From Raillietiella orientalis (lineage: Eukaryota), in NCBI GenBank assembly GCA_036172245.1, contig JAYWIR010000104.1:1-64000 (forward strand): a DNA stretch of 64,000 nucleotides, read 5' to 3'. A program made the position numbers and the translations under genes. Below, piece after piece: positions 1 through 12,550 of this stretch. Below the pieces are notes generated by a model. It had not been told where the DNA came from. It was given only the letters and a program-made list of their open reading frames with translations, and searched no databases. How positions within the stretch are numbered: the first letter of the stretch is position 1; each line of letters opens with the position of its first letter.

Positions 1-114
1 TTCCCACCTCGTTTCGTTCAGCAAAGATGCGGCTCCTCCCGAAGGGAAAAAACCTAAGGTGCATGAACAACTGGCGTCCCATCACAATAGTGAATCCGGA
101 CGCCAAGTTGCTAG
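1..114 (+). pseudogene. RT fragment of an L1/Tx1-like element (host0), interrupted by elements A and B
   Basis: Frame 1 reads FPTSFRSAKMRLLPKGKNLRCMNNWRPITIVNPDAKLL, homologous to the RT N-terminal motif of the neighbouring ORF2s. It stops at element A's 3' terminus. Confidence 0.85.
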
Positions 115-320
115 TTGCCACCTGGTCACGCCGGGGCGTTTATTAAAAATTCTCTTTGATCCGTGGTACGAGACCCCACTACGGCCAACTCAACTGGACC
201 TGCCGGATCGCCCGTACGCAGACCGGCGCGACTCTCCTCGGCAGCGGAAGGGGGTGGGGGAAAAAACAAAAAGAAAAATGAAACATAAAAACAAAAAGAT
301 TTGGGAGGGTTGGGGAGGGA

Positions 321-9385: not shown

Positions 9386-10899
9386 AAGTTTCTCCTTCGG
9401 GAACGGGCCGCGGTATGGAACGCGTTCGCGGCTCCTATCCTCCGCCCTCTGCTTTTTGTTTTCGCCGTCCTCAGAGAGTTGAAAAAACGGACAAAGGACC
9501 TCCTGAGAATTGCCCTTTGGGGAAGAGGGAGGCCCCGAGTCCCGTTGAAGGACTTGTGTGCTCCACGTCGGGATGGCGGTCTCGGCCTATTGACGATGGA
9601 GCGAGTAGAGATTCAGCTGCGGTGGCGAACCCTCGCCATCGCAGCGAAGTTATGGAGCACTTCTTGGTGCGTTCCGGCCCGACTCCTTGCCAGCCGTGTA
9701 TCCGGAACGGAGGGTCTCGCGTCCTATCTTCTGTGCCGTGGCAGGAAGATCAAGAGATGCGGACTTCTCCTGAGACGCATGGCAACTCTGGCTAAGGAAA
9801 ACGGCTGGATGGTATGCAGCCCCGCCAACTCCTCCGCATGGCTGGAGGAGACAGCTGGCACGTGGGCGAAGATTAATGAAAAGAATGAAGAGATGTGGAA
9901 CTGCCTGCGACGCGGCGCCTATTCCCGCTGCACTCTGCGGAAGATACTCCAGTGTCCCGCGAGAAGCACGTGGGCAGAGACAACCCCACTAGCTACGGCG
10001 ATGCCCTTCCTGAGGAGGGCACTCTCCAGCAGCCGCAAGCCTAGGTGGCAAGTCTCCTGCCGCATCGCAGGCAACGAGAAGTTGATCAGCGGCTGGTCCA
10101 CGGGTGAACTGGCGGACGCCAGTACCCCTAGTGTCCAGCCGAGAGGACTGCAGAGATGGGGCGAGCTACTCGGCATCCAGCCGGATGACCAGAAGTGGCC
10201 CCCGGTATTAATTGAATCTAGGATCCTCCCCCTGAAGTGGCAGGAGTCGGCGCTTCTGTTGTTGCATAGGGGTCTACCCTGCAACGCACGCCGCCAACAC
10301 TGGACCAGGGGTCGAGTAGATCCTACCTGCATCAGGTGTGGGGAACGGGAAACTCTCCCCCACTTCCTTGTTGATTGTGCTGCCCTCCGACCCCTGTGGG
10401 AACGTCTTCGTGCCTCCCTACTTATCCAAGAGGGCAGCCAGCCCAGAGACGTTTTTCGGCTTCTGTTCGTGCATGATGCCCTGGGTCCAGCCGCTACCCT
10501 GGCTGCACTTTGCTGCGTACGCGGGATTGTGACGTGCTGGAGCAACGTCGGAAGATCGAGCTACGACAGCGATACCGTCGTAGTTGCAGTCCGCTACTTG
10601 CGGATTGTGACCAGATGGCCCCACCTGGGAATTATACGGACGGACCTCGAGGGCATCCTGCGAAGGATGGACCCTCCTCCCAGTGGTCAGTGATCCCTCC
10701 CCAACCCTTTCAAATCTTTTTGTTTTTATGTTTTATTTTTCTTTTTGTTTTTTCCCCCACCCCCTTCCGCTGCCGAGGAGAGCCGCGCCGGTCTGCGTAC
10801 CGGCGACCCGGCAGGTCCAGTTGAGTTAGCCGTAGTGGGGCCTCGTACCACGAATCAAAGAGAATTTTTAATGCACGCCCCGGCGTGACTGGGTGGCAA
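9385..10899 (+). mobile_element. Element C: 5'-truncated A-family copy
   Basis: KFLLRERAAVWN...RRMDPPPSGQ* is nearly identical to the A ORF2 C-terminus. The terminus AATGCACGCCCCGGCGTGACTGGGTGGCAA ends at 10899. Confidence 0.9.
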
Positions 10900-12550
10900 C
10901 TATTAACTTGGCGTCCGTATTTACAATCGTGATCGGACGCCAGTCCTTTAAATCTCTGAGGTCTCTCCCTTTCGGAGGGAGCCGCACTCTGGCTGACCGA
11001 AACGAGGCAGGAACATCGCCTTTTTCTCGGATCAGTCTTATCAACTTAAGCAGCAGGGGTGCCAGCTCTTCCACGAAGCTCTGAAAGAACTCCGCGGGCA
11101 TGGCGTCTTCCCCTGGAGCTTTATGCCTCTTGAGCATTTTGTTACCGGCGAGAATTTCGCCGGTGGTAAAAGGCTTGTCGAGGCTTAACAACTCCTCCTC
11201 CCCTATCACCAGGGCGTCATCCGGAAGCAAGCGCCGAGAGTCGTCTTGATCCGGGGGCTCCCTTTCGTAAAGGGAGGAATAAAATCTCCGCACGAGATGT
11301 CGTAGCGACGCTGGGGACGACCATTCCCGGCCCTGGTCGTCGAGCATGCTGGCCGACCTGGATTGCCAGGCTTGGCGTTCGTTCATTGCTCGATATTCGG
11401 CCAGGCGACGGACCTCTGTACCGTCGGGCCTGTAAATAAGCCATATGGTTTCGAGCCCCCTCCCCAAATCCGGGGGGCAGGCGGTGTAAGGGGAACTCCT
11501 CGCAGAACTCGCGGACCGAGGCCTAAGAAAGGTTCCAATCCAAAAGACTCTGTAGCGTGATGCCTCTCAGGAATTCGCAAAGGTGTTCCTTCGCACCTGA
11601 GAGTCGCGTTCAGTGACCCGGGAGACGCCAATTTGTGGATGGCGGTCCCTTGTCGCGAGGCCTTATCTCGAAGATTGAACGAGCATGGTCCGACAGCGTC
11701 GACACAATCCTCCCCGGTGTGCCGACCCGTGAACACAGGTCAGCGTCTAGGAAGACGTGGTCGATGCTGCGGACCATACCTCTCTTACCTGCGAACAAGT
11801 TGCGCTCACGCATGGTGGCGCACAACTCATTCATCGCGTTCTCTTGTGTTTCAGGCTCACCTGTTAGCAGGCAAAGATTGAAGTCTCCAGCTATTAGGTG
11901 AGCCTTTCGCACGTTCGTGTCCGCCAGCCAGTCGCGCTTCAGGGATTCCAGCAACCTTTTGGGGTCACTGTATCCCTGTTTTCCGCTGGAGGCGTACACA
12001 TTTGTGACGATCAGTTCGATCGAGTCGGACCAGCTGAGAGTCAGCTGAACGACCCGACCGTCGTCATCGAACCGCACGCCCTTCACGGCAGCGTCGATGG
12101 CTGGCTTCACGAAGAACGCGACCCCGCAGGTGTTGCGGAAGCCGCATTGCCAATACAACCAACCCCTCACGATCGTCTCGATCTCCTGGGCGTCTGCCGC
12201 GGTGATCACGTGGATCTCCTGCAACAGGGCCAGGTCGAGCTCACGCAGGGTGTCGGCCGTATCTCGCCTGTTGCCGTCGTCGCGCAGCCCGTTGACATTC
12301 CAGCAGGCGGCGCGGATCCGACGGCGACTGGCAAGCCCAGGTGTTACTCCTGGGAAGATGGCGATGCGGCTTCCGCCACCTGTTATGGCGGAACGCTAGG
12401 TGGAGAAGGAGGGTCAGGCGCTGAATTCACCTGTTCCCCCTCTTTTATTGGTAACTGTACGTCGTGCGGGTCACCCACAGGTGGATTCGCGCCTACCTGT
12501 TGTCCCTCCATTGGAGTGGCCGGCTCGAAGGCTGGCCGACCCCCTCCATT
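10900..12550 (-). mobile_element. Element D: fragment spanning ORF1 tail, APE, linker and start of RT
   Basis: ORFs 11610-12224 (QEIH, NVYAS, AGDFN, IDH, SDH) and 10868-11467 (KAPGED, DWRPITIVNTDAKLI). Cut by C on one side and by the 5' end of E on the other. Confidence 0.9.

Follow-up and report, generated by a model that had tools for sequence, protein, structure and literature searches.

Insertions of an L1-like retrotransposon family at one base of a reverse transcriptase motif of related elements in Raillietiella orientalis

Introduction

Target-specific long interspersed nuclear elements (LINEs) are known for the genes of rRNAs and small nuclear RNAs (snRNAs), telomeres, microsatellites and some transposons. 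Here we describe a 64-kb stretch of DNA from Raillietiella orientalis (positions 1 to 64,000 of contig JAYWIR010000104.1, assembly GCA_036172245.1; the window), in which three copies of one LINE family, elements A, B and C, end at the same base of a reverse transcriptase (RT) coding motif of related LINEs. The analysis covered this single window and short contigs of one sequencing run (X1).

The closest described systems are the LINEs of the Tx1 clade. In the cited passages, Tx1L is found in the piggyBac-type Tx1D, Tx1-Mar in Mariner-N4_AMi and Tx1-9_AMi in Harbinger, and Tx1-8_Crp and Tx1-4_AMi target long terminal repeat (LTR) retrotransposons (PMC4494074). Tandem copies around a target-site duplication (TSD), which an earlier sequence-only reading of the window had taken as typical of R1 and Tx1-clade families, are likewise in print there, for elements mobilised by Tx1-clade LINEs (PMC4494074). 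The A family is similar in that it is a LINE with an apurinic/apyrimidinic endonuclease (APE), of the L1/Tx1 group by its domain make-up, with a defined target inside another transposon and tandem copies around a TSD of comparable length (about 15-16 bp in the Tx1 clade, 15 bp here). It differs in that the targets named in those passages are DNA transposons, LTR elements, snRNA genes and microsatellites rather than coding motifs of related LINEs, and that they describe no cross-family antisense rule (PMC4494074).

Zepp and ZeppL are L1-type LINEs of green algae which form nested clusters by targeting existing copies (PMC3446292, PMC8226300, PMC9940879). As far as the cited parts of these papers go, the L1-type affiliation, the nested clusters and a G+C content above that of the surrounding genome are common to both cases. 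Zepp arrays, however, consist mostly of 3' ends in tandem, whereas in the window A-B is the sole tandem and orientation alternates; furthermore, several diverged families are involved here, with precise RT- and APE-coding sites and no poly(A).

R1, R2 and other LINEs of ribosomal DNA (rDNA) and telomeres share with the A family a single site, regenerated for tandem copies, and a defined, conserved tail that is not poly(A). They insert into multicopy genes or repeats of the host, and the R2 nuclease is restriction-like; an rDNA or telomere target characterizes the R1 clade, whereas that of the A family is a LINE RT motif. Human LINE-1 shares APE and RT, and apparently a Cys-rich C-terminus, as well as 5' truncation and TSDs, but nicks a loose TTTT/AA sequence genome-wide and ends in poly(A), whereas the A family was found at one 16-nt site and ends in GGTGGCAA. 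Searches of full-text papers turned up no LINE described as targeting an RT- or APE-coding motif of other LINEs; the original Zepp descriptions were outside the scope of that search, and an overlap with them is possible. Transposon-targeting LINEs are thus a known kind, and what appears to be new in these sequences is the use of a relative's coding motif as the site.

Results

Three 3' ends at one base of an RT motif

The features that make up the junctions are the following.

1-114, + strand: host0, a fragment of a related LINE's second open reading frame (ORF2; RT block ...NWRPITIVNPDAKLL), truncated by the start of the window and reaching to the insertion point.
100-114, + strand: left TSD copy, 15 bp, ACGCCAAGTTGCTAG, read directly from the sequence.
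115-6064, - strand: element A, full length; 3' end ...CGCCCCGGCGTGACCAGGTGGCAA, 5' end GCGGACGTGTTTTTTCC...
321-4046, - strand: ORF2 of A, 1241 aa, open; APE, RT (YADD) and apparent Cys-rich C-terminus.
3908-5860, - strand: ORF1 of A, 650 aa, open; apparent CCHC knuckle and N-terminal tandem repeat.
6065-6079, + strand: right TSD copy, ACGCCAAGTTGCTAG, between the 5' end of A (6064) and the 3' end of B (6080).
6080-9386, - strand: element B, 5'-truncated at about ORF2 aa 205, reading frames broken.
9385-10899, + strand: element C, 5'-truncated at ORF2 aa ~796.
10900-10915, - strand: target motif in D, adjoined by the 3' end of C.
10900-12550, - strand: host D, a different LINE family; ORF2 from about aa 5 to the RT position where the 3' end of C abuts.

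On the + strand, host0, which matches aa 496-536 of A ORF2 (tblastn), reads ...AACTGGCGTCCCATCACAATAGTGAATCCGGACGCCAAGTTGCTAG to its last base, 114; position 115 is the first of the antisense 3' end of A (TTGCCACCTGGTCACGCCGGGG...). C ends in ...GGGTGGCAA at 10899, and the following CTATTAACTTGGCGTC (10900-10915) is the antisense of D codons ...DWRPITIVNTDAKLI. In both hosts the break falls after the first base of the codon following DAKL(L/I). A perfect 15-bp duplication flanks A, and the 3' end of B sits on its right copy, yielding the tandem A-TSD-B. In element sense, the bases following the 3' end are CTAGCAACTTGGCGTCCGGATTCAC... in A, CTAGCAACTTGGCGTGCGGACGTG... in B and CTATTAACTTGGCGTCCGTATTTAC... 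in C, those of A and C being the antisense of ORF2 codons ..WRPITIVN(P/T)DAKL(L/I) in host0 and D. In host sense, the occupied motif is thus GACGCCAAGTT(G/A)(C/A)TAG, abutted directly after its last base by antisense A-family 3' ends; the sites in host0 and D differ by two bases (GC vs AA), 4-5 nt from the junction.

The sequence-only reading had described one family at the same RT codon three times in two hosts, B at the duplicated site, and D as a diverged element on the other strand. The junctions, read directly at 114/115, 6079/6080 and 10899/10900, agree with this description, as do the identical 15 nt in the two TSD copies and the 78.9% identity of A and minus-strand D over 1,509 nt. The motif that it proposed, NWRPITIVN-x-DAKL(L/I), was correct in coordinates and sequences except that D reads DWRPI and not NWRPI.

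A and B are 94.1% identical over 3,319 nt, A and C 97.2% over 1,515 nt. All three 3' ends read ...ACGCCCCGGCGTGAC(C/T)(A/G)GGTGGCAA, with no poly(A). The possibility that B is the missing half of D was rejected, as the similarity of B to A is 86-99% from end to end, and that to D 68-85%. As B is more decayed than A, it was probably inserted first, A landing subsequently on the left TSD copy.

One and the same motif base, in two hosts, is thus joined by the 3' ends of all three copies. We favor the interpretation that A, B and C belong to an L1-like APE-type family with sequence-specific, antisense integration into related LINEs, at a conserved block of their RT-coding sequence. All three A-family copies are at one site, a small number from one window. 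The full length of A, its open reading frames and the perfect 15-nt direct repeat point to a complete, two-nick target-primed event at this site; the insertion hallmarks found in the family are the 15-bp TSD (A) and 5' truncation (B, C).

Identity of element A

A ORF2 matched the Pfam domains Exo_endo_phos (3.3e-11, 43.8 bits, cut-off 24.5) and RVT_1 (1.6e-16, 61.1 bits, cut-off 29.6). Two further domains scored under their cut-offs, zf-RVT on ORF2 (19.6 bits, cut-off 27.5) and zf-CCHC on ORF1 (19.4 bits, cut-off 20.8); the Cys-rich motif and the knuckle are visible by eye in the respective translations. The best Protein Data Bank (PDB) match of ORF2 was human L1 ORF2p (8.6e-41), followed by R2 proteins (2.6e-13); the PDB matches at E <= 0.01, 13 in number, included no R1Bm or TRAS endonuclease chain. 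With APE and RT domains, and human L1 ORF2p closest among the structures, A is assigned by its sequence to the L1 group of APE-type non-LTR retrotransposons. In a set of 5.8 billion proteins, 8,000 candidates were scored against ORF2, and 21 of them matched at E <= 1e-10; all 21 were 22-28% identical, none of them close. Internal blastn self-hits revealed a tandem repeat of ~10 codons (..KKGATAALE..-like) at the N-terminus of ORF1 (5640-5910).

Exact-pattern scans for the A-family 3' end yielded one metagenome and 13 prokaryote loci, none with further similarity; these were rejected as chance matches of 22-26 nt. The ORF spanning the junction (..DAKLIVATQSRRGVH) gave three candidates in the same protein set, none of which was scored.

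Occupied and unoccupied motif copies

Additional copies of the motif in the window allowed a comparison of hit and unhit sites.

15405-20957, - strand: element E, full length, 59% aa identity to the ORF2 of A; motif copy GACTCCAAGTTGCTGG, uninterrupted.
2453-2468, - strand: A's own motif copy, GACGGCAAGTTGATCG, uninterrupted.
8417-8432, - strand: B's own motif copy, GACGCCAAGCTGATCG, uninterrupted.

Two of the seven RT-motif copies are interrupted, both ending in TAG; the five uninterrupted copies read TCG, TCG, TGG, TCT and TGG. The RT genes of A and B themselves have TCG at this point (...GATCG) and E has TGG, while in the RT genes of F (27415) and G (42453) the site is more diverged, and intact. 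An A at position 15 of the 16-mer (TAG) is thus confined to the hit sites (two hit vs five unhit), and the TCG of the family's own RT may confer self-immunity.

A search with the degenerate 16-mer GACGCCAAGTTRMTAG, allowing up to 3 mismatches, gave seven matches in the window, compared to 1.31 expected, and none of 100 shuffles reached seven. Every site with 0-1 mismatch was occupied by an A-family 3' end (3/3); of those with 2 mismatches, the ones that are RT-homologous, in A, B and E themselves, were empty (3/3). By hand arithmetic, an unrelated second insertion has a chance of ~6/128,000 of hitting, with matching relative orientation, the homologous base of one of the other six RT-motif copies.

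The count of independent events depends on whether the C-D junction is an old, inverted segmental copy of the A-host0 junction, with inserts that were later homogenised after a single original insertion, an alternative already named by the sequence-only reading. The two junctions do lie 10.8 kb apart, inverted, inside a rearranged repeat nest. The inserts of A and C, however, match at 470 of their last 500 nt and at 105 of the last 114, and identity falls to 85/114 in the flanks (Fisher p = 5.9e-4), precisely at the junction; a conversion tract would not end at the element boundary. Host0 is 77.6% identical to A's own RT, 79.2% to E and 75.2% to D (109 nt), and is therefore no closer to D than to E or A. 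In addition, the same pattern recurs in a second family, described below. Judged by this drop in identity and by the relationships of host0, C-D and A-host0 are separate insertions in different host families, and we regard a segmental copy as highly improbable.

A second family at an APE-coding position

A second pair of insertions, elements K and N1, was compared in the same manner.

About 21990-23209, + strand: element K, 3' end ...CCGGGAGATAA, adjoining antisense APE-coding sequence of host L.
23210-23967, - strand: host L (continuing as O, 29766-30955, across F), ORF2 stopping at ...GGGCGGCTAT.
23968-29765, + strand: element F, full length, splitting one minus-strand host into L and O.
30956-33046, + strand: element N1, 3' end ...CCGGGTGATAA, adjoining host M.
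33047-35006, - strand: host M, ORF2 stopping at ...GGGCGTCTGC.

L and O are contiguous in the coordinates of element E. K and N1 belong to the same family (85.9% identical over 1,219 nt; ends ...CCGGG(A/T)GATAA). In an alignment of the APE-coding sequences of all window copies, L and M stop in the same column, with K and N1 antisense there; intact copies run past this column, as in A, where ..GGGCGGCTGG is followed across it by TGTGG. At the junction the inserts of K and N1 are alike at 130/151 positions, compared to 103/150 for hosts L and M (p = 3.2e-4). K/N1 thus replicates the A-family pattern, at an APE-coding position.

Orientation and architecture of the nest

The first 37.6 kb of the window are a nest of related non-LTR retrotransposons with a G+C content of 0.55-0.63, compared to 0.39-0.54 outside it and 0.39-0.47 beyond 46 kb. 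A tblastn search with the ORFs of intact element A mapped no fewer than 17 pieces of elements in the window, alternating in strand. The nest stops abruptly at ~37595, where A+T-rich, ankyrin-repeat-like sequence adjoins (37600-38960, - strand). Further features of the nest and its surroundings are these.

38962-38972 and 45899-45909, + strand: direct repeat CATAGCAATG of Q+R, an A+T-richer, 5'-truncated relative in non-nest sequence.
40218-40226 and 45785-45793, - strand: flanking repeat ACGAACAAT of element G, a LINE nested in Q+R, 26% aa identity to A.
57829-58392, + strand: open frame resembling a fragment of a piggyBac-type transposase.
60663-62840, + strand: open ankyrin-repeat frame of 725 codons.
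6050-6064 (-), 30940-30955 (-), 23968-23985 (+), 12551-12570 (+), 20940-20957 (-), 37580-37595 (-): shared 5' termini.

The 5' terminus G(C/T)GGACGTGTTTT.. is common to full-length elements of different families, including A, O, F and I. A 3' tail is also common to families (AATAAACGCCCCGGC..ACCGGGTG, then AAAA, GCAA, ATAA or ACAA). As RNA folds of eight such tails were no better than shuffles (z +0.3 to -2.0; the J tail without its last bases), the tail is treated as a sequence landmark only.

Ordinary two-sided insertions are limited to E, F, G and A. E is a clean, antisense insertion in element I, at ORF2 aa ~312, around which a TSD was sought and none detected. With B left out, nine independent 3' junctions lie on LINE hosts in the window, each of them antisense (A/host0, C/D, E/I, J/I, K/L-O, F/L-O, N1/M, H/P and G/Q-R), involving at least six families (two-sided binomial ~0.004, hand arithmetic). 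Elements on opposite strands are also joined 5' to 5', at 9385/9386 (B/C, with a 2-nt overlap), 12550/12551 (D/I), ~21989 (J/K), 30955/30956 (O/N1) and 35006/35007 (M/H); several of these joins involve an exact full-length 5' terminus, the hosts lack their 3' halves, and orientation alternates along 37 kb. Candidate explanations for the head-to-head joins are paired priming on two hosts that converge, the DNA between them being lost, nested insertions with later deletions, or template jumping. A strict 'onion' of simple nested insertions was rejected, since D and M share an overlap of 246 nt (85.8%) and are therefore not halves of a single element.

The orientation data could also reflect a homology-guided process, in which the incoming RNA or ribonucleoprotein (RNP) would pair with the antisense strand at conserved blocks, in an R-loop-like manner, and the displaced sense strand would be nicked or serve as primer; a variant would be template jumping between replication intermediates. 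The uniform antisense orientation would fit such a process, as would the location of both replicated sites in conserved coding blocks. At every chain junction, moreover, the next piece begins with either a true 3' end or an exact 5' end, as end-to-end template jumping, a property of LINE RTs, would produce. Pairing of this kind does not readily account for the use of the same base in hosts that are 25-30% diverged, nor for the equally homologous RT genes of E, A and B being untouched; two defined nicks are indicated by the clean TSD of A (15 bp), and one of the site's flanks in the tandem was no longer host sequence. The primer ends (..CTAG, ..ATAG) show no complementarity to the RNA end (..GCAA), and the site is thus not chosen by terminal microhomology. 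We consider homology-guided targeting unlikely, though less so than the other alternatives to sequence-specific integration discussed in these Results.

Evidence from run X1 and points against site specificity

X1 was the sole DNA run found, with 0.11 of the window's words, and no RNA run was listed; its contigs, compared with positions 1-6100 of the window, are short and mostly 90-95% alike (85/111), and 6 of 79 loose ends were inspected. One contig follows host0 to base 114 and proceeds into CCAAGATGTGGGCAGAGCG, an ordinary RT sequence (..AKMWAE..; E has LAKLWAER), and two further contig joints run from 110/114 into RT sequence. Unoccupied host0-like sites therefore exist.

Several observations weigh against site-specific integration. 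One X1 contig (loose end before base 119) carries an A-like 3' end, ...CCAGGTG, followed by ATAAAT; this different flank is APE-coding sequence (..TTCAATCTCCGCCTGCT, GDFNLRLL block) in sense orientation. A-like copies or sister subfamilies with other flanks thus exist, and the terminus of this contig, which differs, may be that of a sister subfamily. The A family provides just two independent host hits and one tandem hit, in one window, and the K/N1 family two hits only. The 3' halves of host0 and D were not found beyond the inserts; B and C, joined head-to-head, have no checkable TSD, and an extra rearrangement must be assumed for them. Sister families E, H and J are single copies at other sites. 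The earlier claim that the conserved RT motif is a specific target is supported in part, within the window: two independent hits, the tandem re-hit and the 15-bp TSD speak for it, the second family and the antisense rule strengthen it, and the contig with the other flank speaks against it.

If there were no site specificity, the elements might simply prefer LINE-rich, centromere-like chromatin, with the shared site reflecting chance or a hot spot of breakage or pausing. The GC-rich LINE nest, which is like Zepp clusters as these are described in the cited part of PMC3446292, is in line with this explanation, and so is the deviating contig. A coincidence to the single base, in the same orientation and in two families, is difficult to reconcile with it, as is the use of other sites by the 3' ends of other families in the nest; we judge it to be improbable.

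The tandem and head-to-head structures might also be collapsed or chimeric repeat joins made during assembly, given that the region is highly repetitive, that the B/C join is unusual, and that junction support is limited to the short X1 contigs. A, B and C, however, differ by 3-6% and are thus distinct copies, flanks or partners differ among the three 3' junctions although the site is one, and an artefact would not create a 15-bp TSD. We regard an assembly error of this type as highly improbable.

Discussion

Under the interpretation that we favor, sequence-specific antisense integration into the RT block of relatives, the element RNP would nick the sense strand of a relative's ORF2 just past ...GACGCCAAGTT(G/A)(C/A)TAG, and the freed 3'-OH would prime reverse transcription at the 3' end of the RNA (...GGUGGCAA, with no poly(A)). 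The proposed primer is the host sense strand ending in ...TAG-3', since antisense element cDNA directly follows it. The other strand would be cut 15 bp upstream, giving rise to the 15-bp duplication. This duplication would restore the upstream half of the site, so that a further copy could land there, and it is to this regenerated half-site that we attribute the tandem A-TSD-B. Each insertion would split the RT gene of a relative, and the family's own RT, with ...GATCG at the site, would escape. The flank expected after A-family 3' ends is CTA(G/T)(C/T)AACTTGGCGTC. It is presumably the APE domain itself, and not another guide, that sets the site. A read-through RNA carrying the target complement could aid precise priming, as in R1 and R2.

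A broader scenario, which we put forward tentatively and hold to be less probable than site specificity of the A family, is that of a guild of related LINE families, each directing its nuclease or RNP to a conserved coding motif of its relatives, a different one for each family, and inserting in antisense. The A family would use the RT block ..DAKL(L/I) and K/N1 the APE block; synonymous changes (TAG vs TCG) would protect each family from itself, and paired priming would delete the 3' halves of the hosts. If true, such a guild would amount to an arms race of transposon against transposon that builds GC-rich, centromere-like LINE islands.

As read from the junctions, the single-base recurrence in the RT of relatives points to a landing specificity of parasites upon parasites. 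If this is true, a LINE that lands in the conserved sequence coding for its relatives' catalytic domains would plainly exemplify competition among selfish elements, in which each jump would be harmless to the host and would disable a rival, with fresh targets available as long as rivals are active. The intact element A, with its predicted 16-nt-specific APE nuclease, would offer a testable system for how APE domains gain specificity. Two families, two sites and a strict antisense rule suggest a general strategy, one that could explain the growth of Zepp-type centromeric LINE islands.

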